64,000 bases of DNA, taken from NCBI GenBank assembly GCA_002269645.1, contig NIVC01001396.1:1-64000 (forward strand). The letters are read 5' to 3'. The stretch comes from Macrostomum lignano. Taxonomy: Eukaryota. Both the position numbers and the translations under genes were made by a program. This document shows, one piece after another, positions 22,604 through 45,000 of this stretch; within the stretch, counting starts at the first letter, position 1; the number at the start of each line of letters is the position of its first letter. The notes under the pieces were generated by a model. That model searched no databases. It was not told the DNA's origin and was given only the letters and a program-made list of their open reading frames with translations.

Positions 22604-24048
22604 TGTGAGATTCCATCCCAGAGTGTGAGATTCCATTCCAGAGTGTGAGATCCTATCCCAAAGTGTGAGATTCCATCCGTGAGTGTGAGATTCCATTCCA
22701 GAGTGTGAGATCCTATCCCAGAGTGTGAGATTCCATCCCAGAGTGTAAGATTCCATCCCAGAGTTTGAGATCCTATCCCAGAGTGTGAGAATTCATCTCA
22801 TAATGTGAGATCCCATCCCAGAGTGTGAGAATTCATCTCATAATGTGAGATTTCATCCCAGAGTGTGATATTCCATCCCAGAGTGTGAGATTCCATCCCA
22901 GAGTGTGATATTCCATCCCAGAGTGTGATATTCCATCCCAGAGTGTGAGATTCCATCCCAGAGTGTGAGATTCCATCCCAGAGTGTGAGATTCCATCCCA
23001 GAGTGTGAGATTCCATCCCAGAGTGTGAGATTCCATCCCAGAGTGTGAGATTCCATCCCAGAGTGTGAGACTCCATCCCAGAGTGTGAGATTCCATCCCA
23101 GAGTGTGAGATTCCATCCCAGAGTGTGTTATTCAATCCCAGAGTGTGAGATTCCATCCCAGAGCGTGAGATTCCATCCCAGAGTGTGAGATTCCATTTCA
23201 GAGTGTGAGATCCCATCTCAGAGTGTGAGATTCCATCCTAGAGGGTGAGATTCCATCTCATAATGTGAGATCCCATCCCAGAGTGTGAGATTCCATCCCA
23301 GAGTGTGAGATCCCATCCCAGAGTGTGAGATCCCATCCCAGAGTGTGATATTCCATCCCAGAGTGTGAGATTCCATCCCAGAGTGTGATATTCCATCCCA
23401 GAGTGTGAGATTCCATTTCAGAGTATGAGATCCCATCCCAGAGTGTGAGATTTCATTTTGAGTGTGAGATTTCATTTTAGAGTGTGAGATTTCATTTTAG
23501 AGTGTGAGATTTCATTTTAGAGTGTGAGATCCCATCCTTGAGTGTGAGATTCCATCTCATAATGTGAGATCCCATCCCGGAGTGTGAGATTCCATCCTAG
23601 AGTGTGAGATTCCATCCAAGAGTGTGAGATCCTATCCCAGAGTGTGAGATTCCATCCCAGAGAGTGAGATCCTATCCCACAGTGTGAGATTCCATCCCAG
23701 AGTGTGAGATCCTATCCCAGAGTGTGAGATTCCATCCCAGAGTGTGAGAATTCATCTCATAATGTGAGATCCCATCCCAGAGTGTGAGAATTCATCTCGT
23801 AATGTGAGATCCTATCCCAGAGTGTGAGATTCCATCCCAGAGTGTGATATTCCATCCCAGAGTGTGATATTCCATCCCAGAGTGTGATATTCCATCCCAG
23901 AGTGTGAGATTCCATCCCAGAGTGTGAGATTCCATCCCAGAGTGAAAGATTCCATCCCAGAGTGTGAGATTCCATCCCAGAGTGAAAGATTCCATCCCAG
24001 AGTGAAAGATTCCATCCCAGAGTGTGAGATTCCTCCCCAGAGTGTGAG
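22604..24048. repeat. 20-bp satellite (GAGTGTGAGATTCCATCCCA)n, left part
   Basis: About 70 tandem units read directly from the sequence. Confidence 0.97.
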
Positions 24049-24521
24049 CAACAACAACAACAACAAGATACGTGGCCCTGCAAGCAAAGGTCACAGGTAC
24101 GGCAGGGCGCGTCAGATGGCGCGCCGCAGAGCCTTGGAGCAGTAGCCCTCGGCCTGGGATCACGTGGCCCGCCAGTTGAAGTCACCGCCGGCGCAGGATG
24201 ATGAACGGTCGTTGCAGCTTGGCCCGATCGTACAGGGCCTCGGTCCCGACGCTCTCGTCAACTCGAAAGGCCGCACGGAGCAGCCCTGTGTCCGCCAAGT
24301 CCAGCTGCCGCTCTAGCGTAGCCGTCAGAGTCCACGTCTCGGCGTTGTACAGCAGGACGGTTTCGACCACCGCCTGCCACAGCCGAGCCCTCTGACGGTC
24401 GGGCAGCGCTTCGGACTGGAGGACGGCTCAGATCGAACGAAAGGCCGCCCAGGCAAGTCCTCTGCGCCGCCGGAGGTCTTCCTCCACGTGAGGCACCAGA
24501 CCGCCGAGGTAGGTGAACCGC
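24049..24521 (-). mobile_element. RTE-like non-LTR retrotransposon, 3' part (RT C-terminus plus (TTG)n tail)
   Basis: The minus strand encodes FTYLGGLVPHVEEDLRRRRGLAWAAFRSI, VETVLLYNAETWTLTATLERQLD and ILRRR*LQLAGHVI, and ends in a (TTG)n tract at 24049-24066. It joins in frame to 35355-35632 when the 24522-35348 insert and one TSD copy are removed. Confidence 0.88.
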
Positions 24522-24911
24522 ACTACGTATCGCGCCGTTATGTGTTGATTTTCAGAATTCTGACGCAAAAAACGCAAATTATACTACTATCTGAAAATGA
24601 AGTAAGTAGTATATGAAAATGCTATCCTAAGCGTGATATATGTATACATAGCATATTTCTATATGTACTTGCATATGTACATTAATACAACTGCATTCAT
24701 CCCTATCTATCTCAAAATGGATATATGTACATTAATCCCATGTACATTAATCCCTATCTATCTCAAATGTCCATGTCTATCCCCAATTGTATATGTACGC
24801 AGTACATACATGTGCATTAATCTACATGTACAGTGTCATCCCCAGACGGCCCGCGCGCGCCAAGATTACAACTCGAAACCCTACTACATGTACAATCTCA
24901 TCCAAATGAGT
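24522..24911 (+). repeat. Left terminal inverted repeat (~390 bp)
   Basis: Reverse complement of ~34893-35348, near-identical over the outer ~330 bp with indels toward the inner end; rich in ATGTACAT palindromes. Confidence 0.9.
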
Positions 24912-27900
24912 CAACTAATTGTACAGCTCACATCATATATAAACTATTTACAAAGAAGATATATTTACATTAAATCAGTAGCATATTACAGGAAATAATT
25001 TATGTACAACATTACCAGCGAATAGAATATACAGAAAATTTTACATTGTTTTTCAATATTTTTCTCTTCATAAATGATTTTAAACAGGTCTGACATGCAA
25101 AATATGTACAATAGATTTTTACATTGGCAATTTCGCCGCATACAATACAAAAATGCTTTATGTACATTGAATTATGTACAACAAATAGATTTATTCTGAT
25201 AAATTTAACAATACAACAATATACATTGAATCGTCAGTTATAATTAGATTACATTATTTATAGCCATAAGGCCTGCTGCCGGCCCCGTACACACGTTTTG
25301 TCAGGACGCGCTGAAACGTCTTGTCCATGCTAACAGTGTGTATGGTGCAAGACGCCTTGTCACGCCTGAACTGGAACTGCGGCAGCTGCAGAGAGCCGCC
25401 GTGTAGCAGGGTGTTGCGCAGGTCGTCACTGCGTTCCCGTATCTCCGGAGTCAGGCGGATGCCCTTGCATTTCAGGACCTGGCTGTGGACACCAGCCGCA
25501 TCCTCGACAATGTAAGTGTAGAGCTTGGGCCCCCCACTTACAAAGTCGGTCATCCGGCTACCTGCAGGCACCTCATCGGTCCACATTCCGAGGCTCGTGC
25601 CATGGGGCGGCTCCCATTGACCCTCGGAATGCCGGTAAACGACCCTGTGTGGGAGAGAAAAATGAGATAATTAGTTCCACATGCTAACTATTCAATTCTA
25701 AAAGAATTTTTCCAATGCAATACTTACGAGTCGCTGATTAAAGTAACGGTGTCGGTACTCTAGCAGCATAAACTCGCTGCCAATCGGTTCGCAGGCCTTG
25801 ACTTTGAGGTTGGGGTCGGTCAGCCGGGCGAGCCAGTCCTCGTAGCTGGACACAATCTCGGTCGATGTCAGGTCGTCACGCTGACAAAATTTGCCCCAGA
25901 GCCTGTGTTGTGAAAAGAAAAGCTACTGTTAGTAGAAGAAAATCATTTAAAAACAGAATTTATGAATACTTATGAATTCAAAAAGATTTTCGCTACAAAG
26001 CGAAGTCCTGGGTTGGGCTCGACTTTGTCCAGCGTGACGCCCTCCTTGGCGTAAAAATCGGCAATATAGGCCGCCTTATCTTCATCCGACATGCCGGGGG
26101 AGCCGCTCGATTCGGCCTTCAGCTTGAGGAAGGCATTTACATAATCACCGAACAGACCGGTCCGCTTCTCTGTCCAGTAGGCCAGCGCGTGCACCGCCTG
26201 CAGTCGGTAGCCCAACTGGAAGGCCTTTTGCAGCTCAGGCGTTGCCCAGGTGCCTGTCAGCGCCCGCTCCTGGTCTGAGTGGTTGCAGCCGCCGCACTGC
26301 TGCTGCTCCATACAGGTGCGGCAAAGCCCAAAAAAGAGCTTCTTTTGCACCCTGTATGGCAGCAGCGGAATGTGCAGATCTGACGGCGGCAACACAGTCA
26401 CTTTGGCAATGCCAAAGTAGCTGGCCAGCGCGTCAGAGTTGAGCGTCTGCGGCGTCGGATGTTGCACCGGGTGGCCAATCGGGTACGAGTCCTTTGACTG
26501 CACCGTCGGGTACAGAGAGACCTGCAAGTTGAAATAAAGCATTATTTTTCATAAACTGTATTTTTGCAAAATACATTCTACTATATTAGTAGTATCACTA
26601 CTCACCACATCCCGATATTTGAGAGTCTCAGTCTCGCTGGCCACAGCATGCGGGATAAAACACTCTACGCGGCCGCCATAGAGAGCATCTTCCATCTTGA
26701 GTGGAGCGCGCAGATGGGCAGTTGCGGCGATAAAGTCGGCCTGCGATGCCAATACAGTGTCGTATTCATGCTCCCAAATTGTACGAACACTGTAGTTTTG
26801 CCGCTCCAACTCGCGAGTGAACCACTCGGTTTCGTGGCGAATGTGGCTCAGAGGCTGCCGTTTGAGCGGGTGGACGACATCCTGATCGGGCATACACTGC
26901 TCGCAGCCATGGTAGAAACAACCATGAAACTGCAAGACAGTGTTGCTAGTCTCATCAAAGCCGTCCACCTTGCGGCCGAGAATGACCGCCTCGCCGCCAG
27001 TCGAGTCGCAGGTGCGCAGCCGCCCGCCAAATTCGGTGGCATTCAAATAGGCCAGCCACTTGCGCGCCTTGAACGATTGCTGGTCGGCCTGCCGGGCAAT
27101 CACGCCGACCGAGTTGGGCTCCATGAATTTAGTAGTAAACACGGCCATTGCTAAACTGGCAATCGTATTGGCCTGAACAAACGGTTCCAGGCCGTCACAA
27201 ATGTCGCCAATTATCGACCTGTACTTGATGCAGCCCTCGCGAAGCAGGACTGTGTCACTCAAACAATAATCGAGATACTCCCGATTAAAGTTGAACAACT
27301 CGCCCTGTCGCGAGGCCAGCCAAGCACAGATGGAGCCGTAATCGTTGTTCGCTTTGCCGCCATAATATTCAATAGCCGGGTAGGGGCCAACGTAGTTCCA
27401 ATTAGCCGGCTTGTTAAACTCGTGGGGAAACGTCCCCTTGGCCAGCTTTGTGTCAGCGAGCCCTAGCGCTTTGGGGAATTGCGCAAGCGGGATTGGTATA
27501 AAATTTAACGAATCTTTAAATACCAATTTATCCACCATCATGCTCATTAGCCGGCTGCCCTGGAACAGTACTTGGGGCCGCTTCTTGGCCAGGCCGTTGA
27601 GCAGAGCGTCAAGCAGTAGAAACGCATCATAGCCTGATGCATTATGCGCGACAACAATGGCGCCGCCTCGGAATGTGGTGCTCAGCCAGGTGAAAAAAGC
27701 ATTCAGCGAGGCCGGCCCCACAGCCACAAAATCGGCCATTTGGCAGGCGCAGTCTGAGGGGCTGACGCAATTGGAGAATTCCTCCCCCAGATCGCGGCCA
27801 GTCAGACAGTTGGCGGCGCTATGCAGGCCATTGCAGAGGCGGCAAGTCTCGCGCGGAAACGCCCGGCCGGAGCAGGTCTCGCAGCACGTGACGGCAGTCA

Positions 27901-29965
27901 CCAGATGCACGTGATGCTGCTTCTCCTCGTCCGTGTATGTTTCCGTATCGTAGAACACGTACGGCATAGTGGATGCTTTCACTTTGGGAGCCTTGACGAA
28001 GCACAAATGCGAGCCGGCCTCGTCGTACTGTTTACACAGTGGGCACTTGACATGCCCACACTTGTGTTCCGGCTCCTTTTGCCCGACTTTCAGGTCTTCG
28101 CAATACCCGCATTTGGGGCAGACTCGGACAGAGTCACAGCGAGACCTGCCGGCCCGGTTCTTTCGGCGGTGGTTCTCGAAGCACTGCTGATTGTAGCACT
28201 TGAGGCCACAATCAGCGCAGCGCTTGTAGTCACGCTGCAGGCTCTTGCAGTCGGTGCCGGGCACTTTGCATTGAGGGCAGGTGTTGGCACACTTGTGCTC
28301 TCTAGACTTGCAGTCGTACGCCTGCTGGCACCGGTCACAATAGCGGCGGGCACCGAAAAATGGCGGCACTTTGCAAACAGTGTTAAAGTGCTCGCCAATT
28401 AGGTGCAGATTCAGCACTGTGCTGCCAGGCAGGGCATACACACACGTGTTGCCCTCCTCCGCGCCATACACACGAACGCCGAAATCCCGGCCGGGTGACT
28501 GGGCGTTCAGGGCCGCGAGCAGTTGGGGGAGCACGTCAACCCCGAAAGGCCCGTCCTGTGCAATGGTTGATAAATACTAAAACATTTGTATATTAATAAA
28601 AATGCAAATTAAAATGTGCAAGAACATTTTTACTCACCGAATACAATTTGGCGGCAATCTGAAGCTCCCCAGTCAGCTTCGTCTGCAGTGGGGAGTCGGC
28701 CTTGATGGTCCTCCAAGTTTGCTTAGTGATGGCCTTGGCCTCCAGATCGGCAAAGGCCTTGGCCACCACTAGCGCCCGGATAAGGCATCGCTTATCGCTG
28801 TTGGCAATGACGACGTAGTTGCGTCCCCCAATTGAATGGCGTGCCTGGATGTGGCGCTCCGCCGCATCTAGGCTGCCGCAGCCGCCCCGCGGGACCCAGG
28901 CCTTGAGCAAAAACAATTTAAAGTTGTTGCCCAAGACACTGGAGTCCGACTGCAGAACCTTGTTGATATGTTTAAATATCAGCTCTTCAGTGAAGCGGCT
29001 GCGGCGGACGGGCGGCACGTTAACCGTCAACATCATGTTGTCGGCCGTTGGTTTGGCCGAGATGAAATCGTCGGCTTGCAAATCTGAGCAGAGCACAGAA
29101 ATAATGCCCTCAAACGTGGAGCGAATATCGGTAGTATCTGCTGTCGCGGTGAATGTCACTACATATTCGTAGCCTTTTGCCTTAAATTTAGGCAGAGCTT
29201 TCGCCCCGCCAAGGCGCGCAATGAAGCCTGAAAAAAATGGAGGTTTTGAAATTAGAATTGCGAGAGGCGGCGGCGGGTGAATGACTCATGAAATCAACTC
29301 CTTACCATCGCCTTCGACAGTGTCGGGCTGGGGCGGGGGTTGAAATTGAGCCAAATCTGCAATAAAAATGCGCATGGTGACTAAAATTCTGATCGCTTGG
29401 AATTTTAAAAACTGTCAAAAATTTTTGATTGATTGCCTGCAGCAGCAGCAATTTTATCGCCCCACCCCAAGCAACAGAAATCGGTGAGTTGTAAAAACCC
29501 CAACTCGGCACGTTCCGACACGTAGCAACAAAAGAAATGTGGGGTTGATTGACCCCGCTTCGAATTTTAGGCTGTCAAAAATGTTTGATTGATGACCCCT
29601 GATAACACAGATCCTGCCGCAGCAGACATTGTAAAATTTAAAAAAAAACCCTATCAGCACGTGCCTCCATTGTGCCCCCTTGACACCTAGCAACAATACT
29701 GCGCGGCCGCTTTTGGATTTTTAAAGCTGTCATAAATGTCTGATTAATAACCCTCACTGTAGCAGCCAAGTTTTATTGCTGCCAAAACCCCTACTGTCAA
29801 TTGCAGCGGTGATTACATCATCATGCCCAAAAATCGGGGGGTTGATTTTATCACTGCCGCCAGAATACCGACCCGCCCACCCCGCTGAGTCACGTTCGCG
29901 CTGCAGGATTGCTGTTTTTGCTTCTCTCTAGTTCAAGGATTAGTCACATAACCCCTGAAAGGGGA

Positions 29966-30752
29966 TGTCAACTTAAGCACCAGAATGGAGCCCGAAGTTC
30001 AGCTCCGGACCAAACCGACTGCAATCGATAACTTGTCGGCCCAGACGACTAGAATCGCCGAGACATCCCATCCGGCTCCCTTCCTTGGGGTCCCAGGGGA
30101 TAAAGGGGATAAAATGGGGATCTCATGTCAACTTAAGGCTCTGGAATGGAGCCCGAAGTTCAGCTCCGGACCAAACCGACTGCAATCGATAACTTGTCGG
30201 CCCAGACGACTAGAATCGCCGAGACATCCCATCCGGCTCCCTTCCTTGGGGTCCCAGGGGATAAAGGGGATAAAATGGGGATCTCATGTCAACTTAAGGC
30301 TCTGGAATGGAGCCCGAAGTTCAGCTCCGGACCAAACCGACTGCAATCGATAACTTGTCGGCCCAGACGACTAGAATCGCCGAGACATCCCATCCGGCTC
30401 CCTTCCTTGGGGTCCCAGGGGATAAAGGGGATAAAATGGAATCTCATGTCAACTTAAGGCTCTGGAATGGAGCCCGAAGTTCAGCTCCGGACCAAACCGA
30501 CTGCAATCGATAACTTGTCGGCCCAGACGACTAGAATCGCCGAGACATCCCATCCGGCTCCGTCTCTTGCCGAAACTTCCAACACCCCCGGCGGCTCGGA
30601 TGTGTAACTCAAAGTCTCTCCAGGAGTCACCTTCGTAGCTACCGAGAACCTCCTTGACACGAATTCTAGTCGTCTGGGCCGACAAGTTATCGATTGCAGT
30701 CGGTTTTGTCCGGAGCTGAACTTCGGGCTCCATTCTGGTGCTTAAGTTGACA
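29966..30752. mobile_element. Foldback/MITE-like element with ~90-bp inverted arms (TGTCAAC...GTTGACA); the left arm is amplified in four 160-161-bp tandem units
   Basis: Units start at 29966, 30126, 30287 and 30447. 30663-30752 is the reverse complement of the first ~90 bp. No clear TSD. Confidence 0.7.
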
Positions 30753-31584
30753 TACCCTTTTATGACTATCCTCTACAGGCATTATCCGGCTATACTGCTG
30801 CTGGGGATATTCTCTTATTCTCTAAAACTCTGTTATTTCAACAGGCCTGAATTTGAGAAATCCAGTTCCTCCCTTTACTTCAACATCTATGTCAAGAGGA
30901 AATTCAGAAATTTTAAGCCAAAATGAATGCTCAAGATGAAAAGCAGTGGTTTTCAAAGAAAACCCATATTTCAACAAGCGTTAAGTTTGCAAATCACACA
31001 AATGCTAAAGCTGAAAAGCGCACTTATACAACCCTATTTTTCTACTCGTAATTTTAGATTTTGCAAATGCTAGAGATGAAAATAATTGAGGCTAAATAAT
31101 AAAAAGCAGTTTTTTCAGAGAGTCCTATTATTTCAATAAGCTGAATTTAGAGTTTGCAAAGCAACTCTGAATGCGAAGGGTGAAAAGCAGTTTTACAGTG
31201 GGGCCTCCTATTATTTCAATAAGCCTTATTTTGAGTTTGCGAAGCCAAATGAATGCCAAAGATGAAAAAGCAGTTTTTACAGTGAGGCAGGCCCGATGTG
31301 TTTAATATTCACGTAACCATGATTTTAAATTTCCGCCAAACTACGCTTAACAACGCATTTTTGTTAGAACGAAATCTTTGTTTTAATGGGTTTGTTTTAT
31401 TCGGGAAAATTATTTTGTTAAACCGCTATAAAGAAATTTGTTTATTCACGACCCGCGCACCCCACCTCCCCCTTTTTGAGACTATAAATACAAGCGATTG
31501 CGGGCAATTTCCCCTTTGCCCGCCGTTTCCTCGATTCGGTCAAGAAAAGCAAAACGTGTTGTCTTAGTCACTGGAAAGCAAGAC

Positions 31585-31732
31585 AGGAGAGAAAGCTGTA
31601 AGAGGCCAGAAAAGCCGTAAGAGGCCAAGAAAGCTGTGAGAAGCCAGAAAAGCCGTAAGAGGCCAAGAAAAACTGTAAGAAGCCAGAAAAAGCCGTAAGA
31701 GGCCAGGAAAGCTGTGAGAAGCCAGAAATAGA
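31585..31732. repeat. ~19-21-bp tandem repeat (GAGGCCAGAAAAGCCGTAA)
   Basis: About 7 degenerate units. Confidence 0.75.
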
Positions 31733-32619
31733 CGGTTGACAAGTCGGGCAACTCCTTCCCAGGGAGCCCGCAACTAAATATAGGGAATTAATAGTAGTAA
31801 TAATAATAGTAGTGAGATTCATAACTACATGTAGACCAGTGTTTGCCGCTCGACACTGCTACCAGGGCGACTTGCATAGATTCAAGGAGTCCTTAGATTA
31901 GAATTCTAGACTTGATATTTTCTAAGAAGCAGCAATTGACTAAGCAATTTTATGGAGTAATAACTATTCTAAATTACAACAACTTGATTCTGTAGTGTGA
32001 TTATAAACTAGGAAGTGTATAGCCCTGGTATAACTTGGTGGCATAGTGGAATAAGAATACCATAATAGTAAAGACACCTACAACAACTTGGTGCTTGCGG
32101 TAGGATAATTTCTAGAGAGAGAGTTTAGGCCTGCAACAACTTGGTAACAGCAGTGGGATCTTAACAGACAGAAATACCCCCTGGTACAACAGATAACAGC
32201 CCTATATTATTCAATAATCCCGAATTTGGAGTTTCGTAAAAGATAAAGATGAAAAATAAATTTTTACACAGACTTGCAAGACTCACCTAGCTGTCGTCCC
32301 CTCTTTGCGGCCGGAGGCTGAGGCTGAGACTGCTGTTGTGAGGGGCCTGCTCGCCCCCACAAAGCTGAAATGGCGGCTTCAGCGGCTGGGCGTTTTGATG
32401 CCATGCTTCTGCTGCTGCTGCTGCTGTGCTGGTGCGATTGTGGTTGATGCTGCTGTGTTGCCGCTGTTGCAGGCTGATGCTGTTGAAGCAGTTGATGCTG
32501 CTGTTGTTGCTTTTGTTGCTGCTGCTGCGGTGCTGATGCTGCTGCTGTGTTGCCGCTGTTGCAGGCTGATGCTGTTGCTGGCTACTTCTGCTGATGCGGC
32601 TGCACCAGCACTCACCCGC

Positions 32620-32627
32620 TTTATATA
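32620..32627 (-). promoter_or_regulatory. Candidate TATA box (TATATAAA) for the pPolB transcript
   Basis: TATATAAA on the minus strand ~215 bp upstream of the putative ATG at 32404, followed by a CAG/CAA-rich leader. Confidence 0.45.
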
Positions 32628-32699
32628 CCTCGCGAGAGGGAGGATGGGGTAGGGGCATGAGAAGTGTGCGTGATTTTCTTTCCTGGGTCTATATTTTCT

Positions 32700-33200
32700 A
32701 GATTAGTGTACGATTGTACACTCGGTTCCACATTTGGTATAGAAAAGTTGGGGTCGAAAATACCCCGCCAATTCTTTTCTCATGCGGTATTTTATTGGAT
32801 CTAAGCGGAGCCAGCCAACCGGCACTCTCGCAGGAGTGAAATTGCGACTTCGCCAGAGACAGTCTCTCAAAGAAGAAGACCGCTTCCTCTTGCAGCATGT
32901 CTATTCGACTTGAATTGGATAGAAAACGGTGTTTATCCAGAAAATAATTGGCAGAAGTTGACCAACGTAATGTTTAGGGATGGACCTGGGTTATAGGGAC
33001 AGAGAGTCAGTTATGGCATTTAAGCGGTGGTAAAGAATTGCCTTGGTGAGGCTGGGGTAGGTGTTGTGTTGTTCTTTCCATATTGGCGAACATTAATAGT
33101 CCTGGGTTGAATTTTGAATATGGCTAGAATGTATAGCGAAGAATCGTTGAATTGAAGGGTGACTCAACATGCAGTGTGTGCAACAAAACCGATTCAGTGC
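32700..33200 (-). mobile_element. Possible highly degraded LINE RT remnant inside the Polinton-like element
   Basis: Only faint motif traces (LLMFAN.., GIFDPNFS), broken by stops and frameshifts. Confidence 0.25.
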
Positions 33201-34311
33201 ATCTAAAAGAGGCTGTTGTGAGCTTCAGAACAGAGAATAACGTTTAAAATAGCATCAATGGCATGATTTAGTAATTGAATGCTGAAAACTTTTAGTTTAA
33301 TAGCGACCTGTGTTTTTAGCCCCAATTTTTACAGTGTCTATAGAATATTTCCCCAGCTTCTAGGGCAATATACCAGTACATGCCTATTTGAATGACAAAA
33401 CAGCATTTTTGATGGTTTATTAGCTGAAATTATGATTTCTATTGATAAAATGGCAGATTTCGATCCATAAAGTAAGCATTTTAACGTTAAGAATCGAAAA
33501 ATGAGAAAACTCGTGTTTTTCATTAAAAAGTTTGCATTTCTATTTTTTTACCATTCACCAACTATTTCTGGGCTGAGCTGGGCTGGCTTGTGGACTTCCG
33601 TGTGGGATTCATTCCTGCTTCGAAGCCGTCTCAAGTAAAGTTGAAACGGCATTTGGACAAATTACTCGTAGCTGTTGAAATGATGTTTTCCAGTGATGAA
33701 ATTACTGATTTTGATCAACAAAGTCTAACTTGAAACGGTAAAAATTAAAAAAACTGGAGAAAACTCGCCTTTTATGAAATGTGCTTTTTACGAGCTAGCA
33801 ATTTAGCTTTTAATAAACTTGGACGGAATTCCAACTTGGAGAGGTCAGTGGGTGATTCATTCCTGCTTCGAGAGATCGAACTTTCATAGAGTCTGAAAGT
33901 TTGAAGTGAGAGGGCAGGGGAAGCGATTGGTTCAATTCGATTTGCTATATGGGTCTGCTGACCATTAGAGGGGTGGCTGTTTTCAAACAGTCTTGGGGTT
34001 GAATTTTGAACATGGCCAGAGATAAAGGGTGATTCAACATGCAACAATTAATTCCATAGTGTACACACGCGTCAGTGGCATATTTTGCGGATTAAAGCGC
34101 GACAAGGGGTCTTGTATCATCTGCACTATCAATAGATATATAAAACATTGCTTTCACAGTCTTGATTTAGAGGCCAACTAAATAAATATATACGTATCAA
34201 AGCTCGGCCGGCTTTTTGTGTAAATATATATATACGCCTTTTGAAAACTTATTTGACTCTGGGAGAGGTGACGAGGGCTGAATTCTAGAAGGTGAAGTAT
34301 GGAAGGAGTGG

Positions 34312-34677
34312 GGGGGGCCGTAGCCCAGCGGTAGCGCAGCTGCTCTGGTGTGCCAGCGACCCAGGCTCGATTCCAAGTGCAGTCACATTAATTTGGGGCT
34401 GAATTGGAATCTCGGCTTGGCTCTGCTCGTGCAATTAACGGCCTTGAGAGCCAACCCCCCAAGGCGCAGTGAAGTGTACATGCCTAACGATAAAAATAAA
34501 GTTAAGGCCGCTGTACACTCCTGTGTGAGTGTGTGCCTGCGTACGTATCCGCGCGCTTGTATGCCTGCTCAGGGGAGTCGGCGGAATGGGCAGTAATGCC
34601 TCTCGCCGGTTGTGTGCCAAATGTCGCTTAAAGTGCGCCAGGGTGCACACAACCCCCCTGCCTCTAATAAAAAAGAA
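34312..34677 (+). mobile_element. tRNA-derived SINE (~365 bp) with 13-bp TSD ATGGAAGGAGTGG
   Basis: A-box TAGCCCAGCGG (34321-34331), B-box GGCTCGATTCC (34364-34374), A-rich tail TAATAAAAAAGAA, TSD at 34299-34311 and 34678-34690. A second copy lies at 55713-56095. Confidence 0.88.
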
Positions 34678-34892
34678 ATGGAAGGAGTGGAGATAACAGT
34701 GTGGACAGCGATTTTTGGCTGACTCATGCCTCCTCTCCGCCAATTTTGGGGGATGGGTGGCGGTTTCTGCGTACACTGTTTGCTTTCTGTGGATCAGCAG
34801 ATCATGAAGAGTTAATTCTTGGATGTGCGGCCACACTGCACTTTGCAAATTTTGGGTTGGTGGGCGCTTCTGCATGCTGTTTCAACTATTGA

Positions 34893-35348
34893 AAACTCAT
34901 TTGGTAATAGTAGATGAGATTGTACAGCGCGCGCGTACACCAATTCTCACCTCTGCGCACAACTGTACACACGTAGTAGGGTTTCGAGTTGTACATGTAA
35001 TCTTGGTGCGCGCGCGCGGGCCGTCTGGGGATGACACTGTACATGTAGATTAATGCACATGTATGTACTGCGTACATATACAATTGGGGATAGACATGGA
35101 CATTTGAGATAGATAGGGATTAATGTACATGGGATTAATGTACATATATCCATTTTGAGATAGATAGGGATTAATGCAGTTGTATTAATGTACATATGCA
35201 AGTACATATAGAAATATGCTATGTATACATATATCACGCTTAGGATAGCGTTATCATATACTACTTACTTCATTTTCAGATAGTAGTATAATTTGCGTTT
35301 TTTGCGTCAGAATTCTGAAAATCAACACTTAACGGCGCGATACGTAGT
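34893..35348 (-). repeat. Right terminal inverted repeat (~455 bp)
   Basis: Inverted copy of 24522-24911, with extra internal sequence near 34930-34975 relative to the left TIR. Confidence 0.9.
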
Positions 35349-35354
35349 AACCGC

Positions 35355-35632
35355 TGGCAGCGTGCGAGCCTGGTCGTCTGCCCGTCTGCGCCGCGGCACG
35401 TCAGGTCAGCTGGGATTTCGGCCGGCACAGTCAGCACCTCGGTCTTCAGCGTGTTGACGATCAGACCAACGCTCGATGCCACCTCAACCAGCCTGTCGAT
35501 CTGGCGCTGGGCACCTTCAACGGACGACGACAGGAGGGCGAGGTCGTCGGCGTAGCCAAGCACGCTTAGGCGCTTTTCGCCATGGTGGTGACCGATGCGT
35601 CTGCACAGCAGGAAGCCGTCATTAGCCGAGGG
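35355..35632 (-). mobile_element. RTE-like LINE, 5'-truncated part of the same copy as 24049-24521
   Basis: The minus strand encodes DGFLLCRR...LSVLGYADDLALLSSSVEGAQRQIDRLVEVASSVGLIVNTLKTEVLTVPA...RLARCQR, with the RT YADD motif. Confidence 0.9.
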
Positions 35633-37935
35633 GAGTGTGAGATTCCATCCCAGAGTGTGATATTCCATCCCAGAGTGTGAGATTCCATCCCAGAGTGTGA
35701 GATTCCATCCCAGAGTGTGAGATTCCATCCCAGAGTGTGATATTCCATCCCAGAGTGTGATATTCCATCCCAGAGTGTGAGATTCCATCCCAGAGTGTGA
35801 GATTCCATCCCAGAGTGTGAGATTCCATCCCAGAGTGTTAAATTCCTCCCCAGAGTGTGATATTCCATCCCAGAGTGTGATATTCCATCCCAGAGTGTGA
35901 GATTCCATCCCAGAGTGTGAGATTCCATCCCAGAGTGTGAGATTCCATCCCAGAGTGTGAGATTCCATCCCAGAGTGTGAGATTCCATCCCAGAGTGTGA
36001 GATTCCATCCCAGAGTGTGAGATTCCATCCCAGAGTGTGATATTCCATCCTAGAGTGAAAGATTCTATTCCAGAGTGAAAGATTCCATTTCAGAGTGTGA
36101 GATTCCATCTCTGCAGAGTGTGAGATCCCATCATAGAGTGCGATTCCATCCCAGAGTGTAAGATTCCATCCCAGAGTGTAAGATTCCATCCCAGAGTGTG
36201 AGATTCCATCCCAGAGTGTGAGATTCCATCCCAGAGTGTGAGATTCCATCCCAGAGTGTTCCATCCCAGAGTGTGAGATTCCATCCCAGAGTGTGAGATT
36301 CCATCCCAGAGTGTGAGATTCCATCCCAGAGTGTGAGATTCCATCCCAGAGTGTGAGATTCCATCCCAGAGTGTGAGATTCCATCCCAGAGTGTGATATT
36401 CCATCCCAGACTGTGAGATTCCATCCCAGAGTGAAAGATTCCATCCCAGAGTGTGAAATTCCGTCCCAGAGTGTGAGATTCCATCCCAGAGTGTGATATT
36501 CCATCCCAGAGTGTGAGATTCCATTTCAGAGTGTGAGATCCCATCTCAGAGTGTGAGATTCCATCCTAGAGGGTGAGATTCCATCTCATAATGTGAGATC
36601 CCATCCCAGAGTGTGAGATCCCATCCCAGAGTGTGAGATTCCATCCCAGAGTGTGAGATCCCATCCCAGAGTGTGAGATTTCATTTTAGAGTGTGAGATT
36701 TCATTTTAGAGTGTGAGATTTCATTTTAGAGTGTGAGATCCCATCCTTGAGTGTGAGATTCCATCTCATAATGGGAGATCTTATCCCAGAGTGTGAGATT
36801 CCATCCCAGAGTGTGAGATCCTATCCCACAGTGTGAGATTCCATCCCAGAGTGTGAGATCCCATCCTAGAGTGTGAGAATTCATCTCATAATGTGAGATC
36901 CCATCCCAGAGTGTGAGAATTCATCTCATAATGTGAGATCCCATCCCAGAGTGTGAGAATTCATCTCGTAATGTGAGATCCTATCCCAGAGTGTGAGATT
37001 CCATCCCAGAGTGTGATATTCCATCCCAGAGTGTGATATTCCATCTCAGAGTGTGATATTCCATCCCAGAGTGTGAGATTCCATCCCAGAGTGTGAGATT
37101 CCATCCTTGAGTGTGAGATTCCATCCCAGAGTGTGAGATTCCATCCCAGAGTGTGATATTCCATCCCAGAGTGAAAGATTCCATCCCAGAGTGTGAGATT
37201 CCTCCCCAGAGTGTGAGATTCCTCCCCAGAGTGTGAGATTCCATCCCAGAGTGTGAGATTCCATCCCAGAGTGTGATATTCCATCCCAGAGTGTGATATT
37301 CCATTCCAGAGTGTGATATTCCATCCCAGAGTGTGATATTCCATTTCAGAGTGTGATATTCCATCCCAGAGTGTGAGATTCCATCCCAGAGTGTGAGATT
37401 CCATCCCAGAGTGTGAGATTCCATCCCAGAGTGTGAGATTCCATCCCAGAGTGTGAAGTTCCATCCCAGAGTGTGAAGTTCCATCCCAGAGTGTGAGATT
37501 CCATCCCAGAGTGGAAGATTCCATCCCAGAGTGTGATATTCCATTCCAGAGTGTGATATTCCATCCCAGAGTGTGAGATTCCATTTCAGAGTGTGAGATT
37601 CCATCCCAGAGTGGAAGATTCCATCACAGAGTGAAAAATTCCATTTCAGAGTGTGAGATTCCATCCCAGAGTGTGAGATTCCATCCCAGAGTGTGATATT
37701 CCATCCCAGAGTGTGATTCCATCCCAGAGTGTGAGATTTTATCCCAGAGTGTGAGATTCCATCCCAGAGTGTTAGATTCCATCCCAGAATGTGAGATCGC
37801 TTCCCAATGAGTGAGATCCCATCGCAGAGGGTGATATTCAATTGCAGAGGGCGAGATCACATCCCAGAGGGTGAGATCCCATCCTAGAGGGTGAGATCCC
37901 ATCCCAGAGTGTGAGATCCCATCCCAGAGGGTGAG
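35633..37935. repeat. 20-bp satellite (GAGTGTGAGATTCCATCCCA)n, right part
   Basis: About 115 units, same unit and orientation as 22604-24048; degenerates to GAGGGTGAGATCCCATCCCA at the right end. Confidence 0.97.
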
Positions 37936-38474
37936 GTGTTATTGTTGTCGTGTATTTATGCCGCTAATCATATTGCTGTTTTTATGACTAGAATAAAAAT
38001 TAATGAAATAAAACAAAGCACAATAATTTTCGTTTATTTGAGCTACAAATGATGCGAAAATATGCAGCCGTTGTTTATTACAAAATTCCATCCAAATAAA
38101 ATCTCGCTTATGTCGCTAATTTACGGTCTTTAATACAACAATTTATCGAACTTAAATTCATTCAATAGAATTTAAGCAGCCAGAATTCAGAATTTTCTAC
38201 AGCTTGGAGAATAATCAGCAGCATAATTCTAAAATTAGCGCTGAAAATTTGGTGGATAATTTAAAACCAAAGCATGAGATGACTTGCATTTCGGAATACT
38301 TTAATGGCCTCGGCGAATAAAATTGCAAAGGTGAAAAAACGTGGATTACAAAATTCGACTTTAATTTTCAGTTTTAAGTCAATAAATGTAGCACTCATTT
38401 TGTTATAAATTACTGAGCACAGAGAGTTAGTTATAAATATATTAGGATAAAATTTTCTGTTCATCTAGTAAGCG

Positions 38475-39000
38475 CACAGAGTGACACATCATAGAGTGAC
38501 ACATCATAGAGTGACACATCACGGAGTGGCACATCACAGGGTGACACATCACAAGGTGACACATCACGGAGTGACACATCACGGAGTGACACATCACGGA
38601 GTGACACATCACGGAGTGACACATCACGGAGTGACACATCACGGAGTGACACATCACGGAGTGACACATCACGGAGTGACACATCACAGAGTGATACATT
38701 ACAGAGTGACACATTAAAGAGTGACACATCACAGAGTGTTACATCACAGAGTGACACATTAAAGAGTGACACATCATGGAGTGACACATCACAGAGTGTT
38801 ACATCACAGAGTGACACATCACAGAGTGTTACATCACAGAGTGACACATCACAGAGTGACACATTATAGAGTGACACATCACGGAGTGACACATCACGGA
38901 GTGACACATCACGGAGTGACACATTATAGAGTGACACATCACGGAGTGACACATCACGGAGTTACACATCACAGACTGACACATCACAGACTGACACATC
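38475..39000. repeat. 15-bp satellite (GAGTGACACATCACR)n
   Basis: About 35 units. Confidence 0.95.
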
Positions 39001-39068
39001 AATCAATGAAACATAAATCAAAATCAATTTCTGCAAAAGAAAATTTTACAAATAAAAAATTCTGTTAG

Positions 39069-42000
39069 TTAGTCCGATTCAGCTCGAGGACCCCAGCGCA
39101 TCTTCTCTGGCGACAATTTTCTTTTCCTGCCGGCGACAATTCTAACACGCCTGGGCGACCGGAAGTTGACCGGGATGGACACCGGGTGCAGCACCTCACC
39201 TGATGGATCACCACGTTCGTCAGCTTCGTTCTCGGAGACGCCGGAAAATTCTCTACCGAGAAGCTCCTTGCCTAGCGCTCTTCTGGGCAACACCATGGGC
39301 AGGTAGTGCGTACCCGACGGGTGCAGAACGAATCCAGGCAGTTGAAGCTCGTCCTCGGCGTCGTCTGGATGATCTTCGCTGCCGGCGCTGTCACTCTCGC
39401 CTGGTTGAGCCTGCTGAGAGGAGTGAAAAATCACAGAGTGAAAAATCACAGTGTGAAAAATCGCAGAGTGAAAAATCACAGAGTGAAAAAACACTGGGTG
39501 AAAAATCACAGAGTGAAAAATCACAGAGTGAAAAATCACAGAGTGAAAAATCACAGAGTGAAAAATCACAGAGTGAAAAATCACAGATTGAAAAATCACA
39601 GAGTGATAAATCACAGATTGAAAAATCACAGATTGAAAAATCACAGAGTGATAAATCACAGAGTGAAAAATCACAGATTGAAAAATCACAGAGTGAAAAA
39701 TCAGAACGACAATACAGAGGGTAAAAATCACTGGGTGAAAAATCGCAGAGTGAAAAATCACTGGGTGAAAAATCGCAGAGTGAAAACTCACTGGGTGAAA
39801 AATCGCAGAGTGAAAAATCACAGAGTGAAAAATCACAGAGTGAAAAATGACAGAGTGAAAAATCAGAGTGAAAAATCGCAGAGTGAAAAATCACTGGGTG
39901 AAAAATCGCAGAGTGAAAAATCACTGGGTGAAAAATCACAGAGTGAAAAATCGCAGTGAAAAATCACAGAGTGAAAAATCGCAGAGTGAAAAATCTCAGA
40001 TTGAAAAATCACAGAGTGAAAAATCACAGAGTGAAAAATCTCAGATTGAAAAATCACAGAGTGAAAAATCACAGTGTGAAAAATCACAGAGTGAAAAATC
40101 ACAGATTGAAAAATCACAGAGTGAAAACTCACTGGGTGAAAAATCGCAGAGTGAAAAATCACAGAGTGAAAAATCACTGGGTGAAAAATCGCAGAGTGAA
40201 AAATCACTGGGTGAAAATTCGCAGAGTGAAAACTCACTGGGTGAAAATTCGCAGAGTGAAAACTCACTGGGTGAAAATTCGCAGAGTGAAAAATCACAGA
40301 GTGAAAAATCACAGAGTGAAAAATCACAGAGTGAAAAATCACAGAGTGAAAAATCACAGAGTGAAAAATCACAGAGTGAAAAATCACAGAGTGAAAAATC
40401 ACAGATTGAAAAATCACAGAGTGATAAATCACAGAGTGAAAAATCACAGATTGAAAAATCACAGTGATAAATCACAGAGTGAAAAATCACAGAGTGAAAA
40501 ATCACAGAGTGAAAAATCACAGAGTGAAAAATCACAGATTGAAAAATCACAGAGTGAAAAATTGCAGAATAAAAAATCACAGAGTGAAAAATCACAGAGT
40601 TATAAATCACAGAGTGAAAAATCACAGAGTGAAAAATCACAGAGTGAAAAATCACAGAGTGAAAAATCACAGAGTGAAAAATCACAGAGTGAAAAATCAC
40701 AGAGTGAAAAATCACAGAGTGAAAAATCGCAGAGTAAAAAATCACAGAGTGAAAAATCACAGAGTGATAAATCACAGAGTGAAAAATCACAGAGTGAAAA
40801 ATCACAGAGTGAAAAATCACAGAGTGAAAAATCACAGAGTGAAAAATCGCAGAGTAAAAAATCACAGAGTGAAAAATCACAGAGTGAAAAATCACAGAGT
40901 GAAAAATCACAGAGTGAAAAATGACAGAGTGAAAAATCAGAGTGAAAAATCGCAGAGTGAAAAATCACTGGGTGAAAAATCGCAGAGTGAAAAATCACTG
41001 GGTGAAAAATCACAGAGTGAAAAATCGCAGTGAAAAATCACAGAGTGAAAAATCGCAGAGTGAAAAATCTCAGATTGAAAAATCACAGATTGAAAAATCA
41101 CAGAGTGAAAAATCACAGAGTGAAAAATCACAGATTGAAAAATCACAGAGTGAAAAATCGCAGAGTGAAAAATCACAGATTGAAAAATCACAGAGTGAAA
41201 AATCACAGAGTGAAAAATCTCAGATTGAAAAATCACAGAGTGAAAAATCACAGTGTGAAAAATCACAGAGTGAAAAATCACAGATTGAAAAATCACAGAG
41301 TGAAAACTCACTGGGTGAAAAATCGCAGAGTGAAAAATCACAGAGTGAAAAATCACTGGGTGAAAAATCGCAGAGTGAAAACTCACTGGGTGAAAATTCG
41401 CAGAGTGAAAACTCACTGGGTGAAAATTCGCAGAGTGAAAACTCACTGGGTGAAAATTCGCAGAGTGAAAAATCACAGAGTGAAAAATCACAGAGTGAAA
41501 AATCAAAGAGTGAAAAATCACTGGGTGAAAAATCGCAGAGTGAAAAATCACAGAGTGAAAAATCACAGAGTGAAAAATCACAGAGTGAAAAATTGCAGAA
41601 TAAAAAATCACAGAGTGAAAAATCACAGAGTTATAAATCACAGAGTGAAAAATCACAGAGTGAAAAATCACAGAGTGAAAAATCACAGAGTGAAAAATCA
41701 CAGAGTGAAAAATCGCAGAGTAAAAAATCACAGAGTGAAAAATCACAGAGTGATAAATCACAGAGTGAAAAATCACAGAGTGAAAAATCACAGAGTGAAA
41801 AATCACAGAGTGAAAAATCACAGAGTGAAAAATCACAGATTGAAAAATCACAGAGTGATAAATCACAGAGTGAAAAATCACAGATTGAAAAATCACAGTG
41901 ATAAATCACAGAGTGAAAAATCACAGAGTGAAAAATCACAGAGTGAAAAATCACAGAGTGAAAAATCACAGATTGAAAAATCACAGAGTGAAAAATTGCA

Positions 42001-45000
42001 GAATAAAAAATCACAGAGTGAAAAATCACAGAGTTATAAATCACAGAGTGAAAAATCACAGAGTGAAAAATCACAGAGTGAAAAATCACAGAGTGAAAAA
42101 TCACAGAGTGAAAAATCGCAGAGTAAAAAATCACAGAGTGAAAAATCACAGAGTGATAAATCACAGAGTGAAAAATCACAGAGTGAAAAATCACAGAGTG
42201 AAAAATCACAGAGTGAAAAATCACAGAGTGAAAAATCACAGAGTGAAAAATCACAGAGTGAAAAATCACAGAGTGAAAAATCACAGATTGAAAAATCACA
42301 GAGTGAAAAATCACAGAGTGAAAAATCACAGAGTGAAAAATCACAGAGTGAAAAATCACAGAGTGAAAAATCACAGAGTGAAAAATCACAGATTGAAAAA
42401 TCACAGAGTGATAAATCACAGAGTGAAAAATCACAGAGTGAAAAATCACAGAGTGAAAAATCACAGAGTGATAAATCACAGAGTGAAAAATCACAGAGTG
42501 ATAAATCACAGAGTGAAAAATCACAGATTGAAAAATCACAGAGTGAAAAATCACAGATTGAAAAATCACAGAGTGAAAAATCACAGAGTGAAAAATCACA
42601 GAGTGAAAAATCACAGAGTGACACTCACTTCCGGTCCGGATGTAATCCTGGATGAGCTCAGAGGCTGAGATGAAGAAGGCGGTGCCTGAGGCGGCGGCAG
42701 TGGCAACTCAGACGGTGGCAAGCCTTTGCGCGCATCGAGCAACGCTGAGATCTCCGAGTCGTCGTCTGCCAATGAAAATAGACACATTCTATGGTACGTA
42801 GTGCGCGCAAAATGAAAACTGCGCGTATCAAAGAAAAGACACGCGCGCATCTGTGCGCAAAAGAAAACAACAAGATGAGCAGATTTCTTGCTTTAAGTAC
42901 AGCAGTTAAACTGTACACTTACCTGAAAATTTAGAGTTATATCGCTGCAACGCGCCCTGCAGGTGCGCATAGAGGTGGGCACACAGGGAATCAGCTGTGC
43001 CAGCCGACATCTGCGCTGACTCAGACTCTGACAGGAAGCTCAGGGTAGCTCGAGTCGCGTCCAGGAAGCCTTGTTGAAAATTCTCTGCGCACAAGGCAGG
43101 AATCTGATGCCCGCCTGACTCTGCGGTGCGTGCGGATGAGGAACTGACTGTAGCATGAGAATTTCACTAACTGGGAGGCTGGCCCAGCTACTGACACTCT
43201 GGGAGACCGGCCCAGCAACTGAGGATCTAGGAGGCTGGCCCAGCAACTGAGGATCTGGGAGGCTGGCCCAGCAACTGAGGATCTGGGAGGCTGGCCCAGC
43301 AACTGAAAATCTGGGAGGCTTGTGGCCCAGCAACTGAGGATTTGGGAGGCTTGTGGCCCAGCAACTGAGGATCTGGGAGGCTGGTGGCACAGCAACTGAG
43401 GATCTGGAAGGCTGGCCCAGCAACTGAGGATTTGGGAGGCTTGTGGCCCAGCAACTGAGGATCTGGGAGGCTGGTGGCACAGCAACTGAGGATCTGGAAG
43501 GCTGGCCCAGCAACTGAGGATCTGGGAGGCTGGCCCAGCAACTGAGGATCTGGGAGGCTGGCCCAGCAACTGAGCATTTGGGAGGCTGGCCCAGCAACTG
43601 AGGATCTGGGAAGCTGGATCAGAAACTGAGGATCTGGGAGGCTGGCCCAGCAACTGAGGATCTGGGAGGCTGGCCCAGCAACTGAGGATCTGGGAGGCTG
43701 GCCGAGCAACTGAGGATCTGGGAGGCTGGCCCAGCTACTGAGGATCTGGGAGGCTGACCCAGCAACTGAAAATCTGGGAGGCTTGTGGCCCAGCAACTGA
43801 AAATCTGGGAGGCTTGTGGCCCAGCAACTGAGGATCTGGGAGGCTTGTGGCCCAGCAACTGAGAATCTGGGAGGCTGGTGGCACAGCAACTGAGGATCTG
43901 GAAGGCTGGCCCAGCAACTGAGGATCTGGAAGACTGGCCCAGCAACTGAGGATCTAGGAGGCTGGCCCAGCAACTGAGGATCTGGGAGGCTGGCCCAGCA
44001 ACTGAGGATCTGGGAGGCTGGCCCAGCTACTGAGGATCTGGGAGGCTGGCCCAGCAACTGAGGATCTGGGAGGCTGGCCCAGCAACTGAGGATCTGGGAG
44101 GCTTGTGGCCCAGCAACTGAGAATCTGGGAGGCTGGTGGCACAGCAACTGAGGATCTGGAAGGCTGGCCCAGCAACTGAGGATCTGGAAGACTGGCCCAG
44201 CAACTGAGGATCTAGGAGGCTGGCCCAGCAACTGAGGATCTGGGAGGCTGGCCCAGCAACTGAGGATCTGGGAGGCTGGCCCAGCAACTGAGGATCTGGG
44301 AGGCTGGCCCAGCAACTGAGGATCTGGGAACGAGTTCGGGTTAATCTGGGGTATGTGAGGTACCAAGTAACCAAGCTCAAATCCAACCAAAGTCAAGGTC
44401 CGCAGCACTCACCAGTCTTGTACTGACCCACCAGTGACGTCAGTACAGCGATGTGCTGAATGGCCATCTCAATAATCTCAGCCTTCTCGATTCGGCCTTG
44501 GCTCTGAATTTTTTTAAGTTGGTGAAAATTTTTTGCTTCGTAAATAAGTACTCGATGAACTAAACGCTGTCTAGAGCAGTTGGAATGATTACAAGGAAAA
44601 CACTGTTGTTGGTAAACAGCTCTGACTCAAGCAAACTCTCGCACACAAACAGCCATATGAAGAGTTAGAAAGCAGGCATTGTCTCATGAGCATTCTCAGC
44701 TCACTTGTTTTGCTCTCGCACTGGCACAAGGCAGCACAGCTCTGCAAGGGCGTTATTAACTCGATCTCTGCGCCTCTTCTCAATGATTCTGTGAGACTCC
44801 GGGTCCTGCGGTCGGGATTGAGGGCGAACGAGGTGTGAAAATTATGTTACAATATGTGGGGAGATGCAAGATGTCAAGATGTCAAGATGCATGACATCTT
44901 GCATGACATCTTGCATGACATCTTGACTATATACTCATCTTTCCTAATCCTTAGTAGCCGTACAGTTACATACCCGGCCGCTGCCGCCGCTTCCAGAAGC

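Follow-up and report, generated by a model that had tools for sequence, protein, structure and literature searches.

A 10.8-kb mobile element occupies positions 24522-35348 of a 64,000-nucleotide stretch of the genome of the flatworm Macrostomum lignano (assembly GCA_002269645.1, contig NIVC01001396.1, positions 1 to 64,000; this whole stretch is called the window below). The element carries a gene for a protein-primed DNA polymerase of family B (pPolB) between terminal inverted repeats (TIRs), and its type of end, ACTACGTA, flanks three recurring classes of element in this genome: polymerase elements, capsid elements and non-coding palindromes. The copy in the window is probably a defective representative of the polymerase half of a two-part Polinton, the halves of which would complement each other in trans.

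Polymerase and capsid genes on separate elements

Elements with ACTACGTA (ACTACG-type) ends are referred to as family A, and a diverged family with ACTACTA ends as family B; each has a polymerase class and a capsid class. A 14-nt terminal pattern matched the genome 92 times, versus 4 times for the reversed control, and yielded 30 facing pairs. All 30 pairs were sampled, together with loci from searches with polymerase, capsid or integrase. The genome searches scored the best candidates only (90 of 171 and 144 of 154 for the polymerase, 98 of 534 for the major capsid protein (MCP) and 150 of 1638 for the integrase), and the locus lists are lower bounds; the MCP and integrase candidates extended down into other families. 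Units with a single end were left out of the TIR-to-TIR counts. Six loci with the 14-nt pattern and no polymerase or capsid gene within 10 kb (C13, C479, C947, C1651, C4217 and C4838) were also excluded; four of them lacked family sequence and two had only ~230 bp of TIR.

None of the TIR-to-TIR polymerase units contained an integrase or a capsid gene (0/15 in family A, 0/6 in family B and 0/3 short polymerase fragments), and a polymerase domain was found in none of the capsid units (0/12 in family A and 0/7 in family B). Apparent polymerase matches in two capsid units covered only residues 1-86 of a public gene model, which correspond to translated intron DNA, and were not counted. As a control, AGTAG-type units of the same genome were scored by the same test, and 5 of 7 carried both modules; one of the two misses has a divergent polymerase (with a PF03175 match inside) and the other is a 7.9-kb unit lacking a polymerase. 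Genome-wide, we found at least 105 polymerase loci and at least 64 capsid or integrase loci, which lay on the same contig in 3 cases, the nearest 48 kb apart. No joint unit was present among the 43 coding units or the 169 loci.

An exact 6-bp target-site duplication (TSD) flanks 11/15 polymerase and 10/12 capsid units of family A, 6/6 polymerase and 7/7 capsid units of family B, and 13/15 non-coding units. This precision is alike in both classes, so the integrase-less polymerase elements were inserted as precisely as the integrase-bearing ones. The four family-A polymerase units without an exact TSD represent one flank-swap event. TSDs (gcagtc/cgtgac) are swapped between two loci, C583/C485/C3161 and C4472/C3173, either by reciprocal exchange via two element copies or as an assembly chimera. 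In many TIR pairs the two copies agree at 99-100% over 300 nt, which is consistent with recent insertion.

Judged by the ratio of nonsynonymous to synonymous substitution (dN/dS), which is about 0.1, both halves are under purifying selection: it was 0.08-0.12 over 21 family-A polymerase pairs and 0.09-0.21 in 14 of 15 family-A MCP pairs (the remaining pair had dS=0). Between families A and B, dS was above 1 or saturated for both halves, with dN/dS of 0.03-0.14 where computable. As synonymous sites are at or near saturation in both halves, the split layout is most likely older than the divergence of the two families.

An earlier note on this DNA had proposed either a recurring polymerase-only family that depends on an integrase supplied in trans or a deletion derivative. 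The former is supported by the recurrence of such units with independent TSDs and low dN/dS; a deletion as a unique event is incompatible with recurring polymerase units under purifying selection. The note also asked whether integrase-bearing elements share the ACTACG termini. They do exist, as ~10-kb elements with integrase and capsid genes and without pPolB, not as full-length Polintons. The recurring layout stands, and one half of a two-part system is a better reading of the unit than a stand-alone polymerase-only class.

The polymerase elements measure about 9.5 kb without insertions, and some sister copies also encode PC4-like and dUTPase genes. A subtype with PC4-like, Ser-rich and dUTPase genes was seen at L057-L058 (C1263) and L114-L117 (C157), the latter contig holding a rearranged cluster of several copies of this subtype. 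The capsid elements (median 10.1 kb) carry an rve integrase, a double-jelly-roll capsid, a penton-like protein, a protease and an ATPase, and lack pPolB; their gene order is pVII-like, integrase, penton, pX-like, capsid, protease. The integrase matches PF00665 at 35.6 bits (cut-off 32.6) and has a weak chromodomain match. Named homologs of the MCP include 'F54H12.2-like' proteins, and its predicted structure (pLDDT 87) matches the double-jelly-roll capsids PBCV-1 Vp54 (E 2.5e-17) and the iridovirus and mavirus MCPs. The penton-, protease- and ATPase-like frames gave no Pfam match above cut-off and were assigned by motifs and by likeness to one-piece relatives; catalytic motifs are present in most copies. 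Combined, a polymerase and a capsid element supply every core gene of a Polinton: pPolB, integrase, major and minor capsid, protease and ATPase. The major capsid was identified by homologs and fold. Family B comprises a second polymerase family (62-70% amino acid identity) and a second capsid family (87-89% in the MCP).

No unassigned frame of polymerase or helicase size was seen in the capsid elements. Their orf3 (L086:8849-9349, L051:2524-3072) encodes a putative TBP-like protein in 19/19 capsid units: the top Atlas matches are PF00352 at 0.95, with a low recognition score, and the best PDB match is the TATA-binding protein (E=0.0027). No paper on a Polinton TBP was among the literature matches listed (12 of 48). 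The orf2 frame gave no usable Atlas match. The palindromic non-coding elements are abundant (L040-L056; C125, C356, C440, C695 and others), measure 6.6-9.5 kb with 2-4-kb arms and ~250-bp repeats, use polymerase-type or capsid-type TIRs and resemble copy-back defective genomes.

Shared ends and probable exchange of DNA between the classes

The ends of family-A capsid elements differ from the nearest family-A polymerase ends by 0-5 mismatches in nt 1-31, versus 21-22 of 30 in nt 32-61. The family-B classes differ by 0-6 mismatches in nt 1-31, and ends compared across families by 11-18. Only nt 1-31 are thus common to polymerase and capsid elements, and the sequence further in is unrelated; in the window, nt 1-31 of the left TIR are this common block, and the remainder occurs only in polymerase and non-coding elements. 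Two identical 31-mer haplotypes are shared between the polymerase and capsid elements of family A and one between those of family B, and no grouping of the haplotypes by class is apparent (permutation p=0.97, n=20). Among 70 family-A ends there are 25 distinct 31-mers, and both ends of one element usually match. All copies found through their proteins had the end type of their family (33/33: 6/6 capsid and 11/11 polymerase copies in family A, 9/9 and 7/7 in family B). Within the terminal 31 nt, positions 9-27 (window 24530-24548) are hypervariable in blocks, and the flanking positions are nearly fixed.

The classes also have internal DNA in common. About 370 bp of polymerase-element intron DNA lies inside 2/12 family-A capsid units, capsid-type TIRs are joined to an interior resembling the polymerase-element arm in 3/15 non-coding units, and a subterminal stretch of the polymerase elements recurs in family-A capsid elements (34178..34311, listed below). 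Together these observations point to recombination between the polymerase, capsid and non-coding classes.

The element in the window

The TIRs at 24522-24860 and 35010-35348 are 99% complementary over 339 nt without gaps, and reach about 370/380 nt (~375 bp) when gaps are allowed. The TSD, AACCGC, is an exact 6-bp repeat at 24516-24521 and 35349-35354. The insertion site is the reverse-transcriptase frame of a long interspersed nuclear element (LINE), which runs on once the element is removed, and this empty-site joint (24515 to 35349 with a 6-nt overlap) is present in contigs of 3 of 4 sequencing runs. The TIR-bounded unit and the TSD described in the earlier note were therefore borne out. 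The target LINE fragment itself sits inside a 20-bp minisatellite (window 22800-24050 and 35630-43000), and 15-bp satellite arrays begin at about 38.4 kb. The features of the element are as follows (SINE, short interspersed nuclear element; LTR, long terminal repeat).

24516..24521, plus strand: left TSD copy AACCGC, within the LINE reverse-transcriptase frame; empty-site joint in run contigs
24522..24891, plus strand: left TIR
25254..25644, minus strand: last pPolB exon, ending in a stop codon; joint 25644/25732 in 2 of 4 runs
25728..25902, minus strand: pPolB exon with a 112-bp deletion near 25732, from comparison with sister copies
25974..26521, minus strand: pPolB palm exon (PF03175); profile match and run contigs
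26606..28576, minus strand: large pPolB exon with Cys-rich region, exonuclease, VSR-like insert and start of the palm; joint 26519/26604 in 4 of 4 runs
28638..29227, minus strand: N-terminal pPolB exon, likely the terminal-protein and OTU-like region, from the domain order in PMC11161782
29306..29356, minus strand: putative small pPolB exon, from splice signals
29961..30757, no strand: copy-specific insertion that has inverted ends of ~98 bp and tandem repeats of 161 bp, within the putative intron 1
31283..32188, no strand: copy-specific insertion, solo-LTR-like (TG...CA, 4-bp duplication)
32287..32404, minus strand: probable exon 1 of pPolB (MASKR..., rich in Gln, with a basic C-end), in a phase that fits the small exon
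32619..32627, minus strand: TATA-like box upstream of the likely first exon
32965..33927, no strand: conserved non-coding arm, ~90% identical among polymerase copies; the palindromic class matches it at ~73% in its ~250-bp repeat arms
34178..34311, no strand: subterminal stretch also in family-A capsid elements (76-95% identity)
34312..34675, plus strand: SINE-like insertion with flanking direct repeat; second copy at 55713-56094
34969..35348, minus strand: right TIR
35349..35354, plus strand: right TSD copy, matching the left copy

The minus strand carries a multi-exon, spliced pPolB gene with PF03175 matches at 54.6 and 42.7 bits (cut-off 25.8). The gene model was built from splice signals, and three downstream introns find support from joints that occur in 4, 3 and 2 of the 4 runs, which are only guessed to be RNA; as the run contigs differ from the window at many positions, the spliced joints report on the family. 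The start of the likely first exon is present in 13/13 family-A polymerase units, and its junction with the small exon was not seen in the run contigs. Several copies (C583, C485, C3161, C2286) have LINE insertions in the Gln-coding repeat of this exon. The PolB of Alpha-class adintoviruses combines the PF03175 type with an N-terminal OTU domain; in the window pPolB the PF03175 match is there, and the OTU-like region was placed by position only, with no profile match. The VSR-like insert was labelled by eye after the description in Jeong et al. In Polintons the pPolB architecture is described as terminal protein, vOTU, exonuclease and palm (PMC11161782). The public proteins closest to the window pPolB are 88-93% identical and labelled Macrostomum lignano; beyond species-named or equally close copies, the best matches are 40% identical or less.

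Compared with its sisters, the window copy lacks 112 bp near 25732 and with them polymerase motif C, which is present in 11 of 12 other family-A polymerase units; the donor of the intron 25903-25973 is also non-canonical. By these sequence differences its pPolB is defective. The earlier note had named a self-replicating family as one of its two readings; the pPolB gene is indeed there, and the loss of motif C, which leaves this copy's polymerase broken, had been missed. About 2.1 kb of the element consists of three secondary insertions missing from the sister copies.

We found no match better than E=0.15 to integrase, capsid, penton, protease, ATPase, PC4 or dUTPase in 29350-34960 (235 stop-free segments, compared with a capsid profile and 15 family proteins), in agreement with the note's claim that pPolB is the only recognisable gene. 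These segments include the regions proposed there for spliced integrase or capsid exons (29.4-32.2 and 32.7-34.9 kb), and none were detected. The element gave no Rfam match. The right arm (32965..33927) is judged non-coding from frameshifting indels between copies, and coding potential of this arm or of the palindromic class was ruled out by such indels together with stops. The element has TIRs and a TSD in the range used for Polintons (100-1500 bp and 5-8 bp) and a PF03175-type protein-primed polymerase, though broken at motif C. Its length (10.8 kb including insertions, about 9.5 kb in sister copies) falls short of 13-25 kb, and the rve integrase, capsid, penton, protease and ATPase expected in the same element are lacking.

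A probable two-part Polinton, its alternatives and its relatives

Polintons are described as replicated by pPolB and integrated by a DDE integrase (PMC6431247). A pPolB alone makes no 6-bp TSD and an element without pPolB has no protein priming, so mutual supply through the shared ends is the simplest account. The pPolB with its fused terminal protein would prime at the shared ACTAC ends and copy either element as linear DNA by strand displacement, and the rve integrase of the capsid element would recognise the same ends and insert either one, producing a 6-bp duplication. While the elements replicate in one nucleus, ends and short stretches of their interior could be swapped. Packaging of the ~10-kb halves would fall to the double-jelly-roll capsid, penton, protease and ATPase, giving a bipartite virus. 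We infer from the sequences that polymerase and capsid elements probably complement one another in trans; the palindromic elements would be parasites of both functions, and the window copy, supplying no polymerase, would need both in trans. We incline, by a narrow preference, to a wider reading: a bipartite integrating double-jelly-roll DNA virus of animals, in which a Polinton split long ago and its replication and integration/virion segments insert separately into the germline, with a hypervariable, shuffled 31-nt end, two co-resident families and palindromic parasites resembling defective-interfering genomes.

Several points weigh against the two-part Polinton. Neither a virion nor free linear DNA was seen, and as the searches scored only best candidates in an assembly of 5269 contigs, a full-length member could have been missed. 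One family-B polymerase unit is nested in an AGTAG Polinton (C1412; L110-L111, L028-L029) that has an integrase, an endonuclease-VII-type pPolB and PLA2-like and pX genes; C382 has a cluster of ACTAC ends close to a polymerase of canonical type; and the 7.9-kb unit without polymerase (C10b) belongs to an AGTAG family. Some loci duplicate one insertion (10 distinct TSDs among 11 in the polymerase and 9 among 10 in the capsid units of family A), and most family-A units were first found through the 14-nt pattern, so that part of their end similarity is built in. In family-A capsid elements nt 28-50 match the polymerase elements of family B and not those of family A, so pairing may not be strictly one-to-one. 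Finally, outside the Macrostomum lignano genome the searches turned up no close relative in its genomic context.

Beyond this genome, no look-alike element was found in the other genomes compared. IMG/VR held no capsid relative, and two distant pPolB loci there had no matching capsid or integrase. Metagenome capsid relatives are 28-38% identical; 15 of their 26 loci of 5 kb or more have a pPolB match, and none of the 26 showed a complete TIR-bounded unit lacking a polymerase. Among the sequencing runs listed, none is registered as RNA. Runs guessed to be RNA cover the capsid element in 28-30 of 30 bins, but this is indistinguishable from DNA and was not used as evidence.

Could each class instead be a satellite of the one-piece, AGTAG-ended Polintons, the polymerase elements borrowing an integrase and the capsid elements a polymerase, with no mutual need? 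The genome holds many one-piece Polintons with both modules, and the nested polymerase unit and the AGTAG unit lacking a polymerase fit this explanation. We nevertheless regard it as unlikely: one-piece units with located ends start with AGTAG, not ACTAC (5 clear, 2 with imprecise boundaries), the integrases of the ACTAC class reach only 26-43% identity with their counterparts in the one-piece families, and within each family the polymerase and capsid classes have identical 31-mers in common and exchange DNA. Descent of both classes by deletion from a full-length ~19-kb ACTAC Polinton, missing from the assembly or existing only as an outside virus, would suit the sum of the halves, which equals a normal Polinton in gene set and size, and the searches and assembly are incomplete. 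But one parent predicts a whole shared TIR and the classes differ beyond nt 31, passive derivatives should not give a dN/dS of about 0.1 between copies, two families between which dS is saturated show the same split, and no joint unit appeared among the units and loci surveyed. Non-autonomous deletion derivatives are expected to share the whole TIR with a full-length parent and to evolve neutrally; the elements here do neither, and no full-length ACTAC unit was found. This origin is the least probable of those considered.

A partnership rather than a fission would change the origin and leave the present-day mechanism the same: a Polinton without polymerase would have recruited an unrelated linear pPolB replicon, and the ends would have converged. 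In its favour, the TIRs are unrelated beyond nt 31, and the polymerases of most metagenomic one-piece capsid relatives have a wider match to the AGTAG-type query than to the ACTAC-type pPolB. On the other hand, one-piece adintoviruses are described that combine an Alpha-type PolB with virion modules of Beta type (PMC8502044), the polymerase elements contain PC4-like and dUTPase genes, as do one-piece Polintons of the same genome, and a close pPolB match is a Nematostella protein (36%), with its genomic context unseen. Such a partnership is, in our estimate, very unlikely.

The usual definition of a Polinton requires polymerase and integrase in one element. Published surveys filter on joint content, one of them by asking for five or more Polinton proteins between paired TIRs (bioRxiv 2023.08.22.554363), so split forms would be discarded as decayed fragments. 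Our full-text literature search, which included the available text of PMC11131425, PMC4405056, PMC10159356 and bioRxiv 2023.08.22.554363 and lay outside subscription journals, Repbase and supplements, found no split Polinton. Segmented pPolB genomes are already known from ssDNA viruses (bidnaviruses and Vesanto virus); in the sources available a split Polinton was not found described. If the reading is right, the split has stayed stable while two families diverged, and a large dsDNA virus-transposon would be seen turning multipartite, with dozens of integrated copies in a laboratory flatworm as the record of that history. Tests would then be open to the recognition of ends in trans, to the question whether mutual cheating yields multipartite genomes (PMC10159356) and to the ways in which Polintons could give rise to segmented genomes like those of bidnaviruses.

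The two elements together resemble Polintons/Mavericks (polintoviruses; Alpha-PolB adintoviruses) in their PF03175-type pPolB, rve integrase with chromodomain-like tail, double-jelly-roll capsid, penton-like protein, protease, ATPase, TIRs and 6-bp TSD, and the gene order of the capsid elements is that of one-piece relatives. In contrast to Polintons, which are single elements of 13-25 kb (bioRxiv 2023.08.22.554363), the modules here lie on two ~10-kb elements. Vertebrate Mavericks, with two gene modules on one molecule that are divided differently from here, have AG/AGT/AC terminal motifs instead of 5'-ACTAC (PMC8097293), and intact copies are described as intronless, whereas the pPolB here has spliceosomal introns. 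The losses described so far concern Polintons without a capsid and adenoviruses without an integrase (PMC4405056). A capsid module without pPolB is likewise found in Tlr1 elements and Polinton-like viruses, and Tlr1 has an rve integrase (PMC11161782). Unlike our elements, these encode a replacement replication protein, whereas here a separate pPolB element shares the ends of the capsid elements. The yeast killer/helper plasmids pGKL1 and pGKL2 each have their own pPolB, and neither is known to integrate. They too are two linear TIR elements (about 9 and 13 kb) acting together, but are reported as cytoplasmic and particle-free (PMC13348850). A parallel in segmentation is with bidnaviruses and Drosophila Vesanto virus, in which one segment carries a pPolB derived from Polintons and the termini of the segments match (PMC4061559, PMC8502044, PMC8363768), as in the terminal 31 nt shared here. 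Those are ssDNA viruses, and the bidnaviruses have a parvovirus-type capsid and a helicase, with no integrase mentioned in the passages available, whereas both parts of the Macrostomum system integrate with 6-bp TSDs and its capsid has a double-jelly-roll fold.

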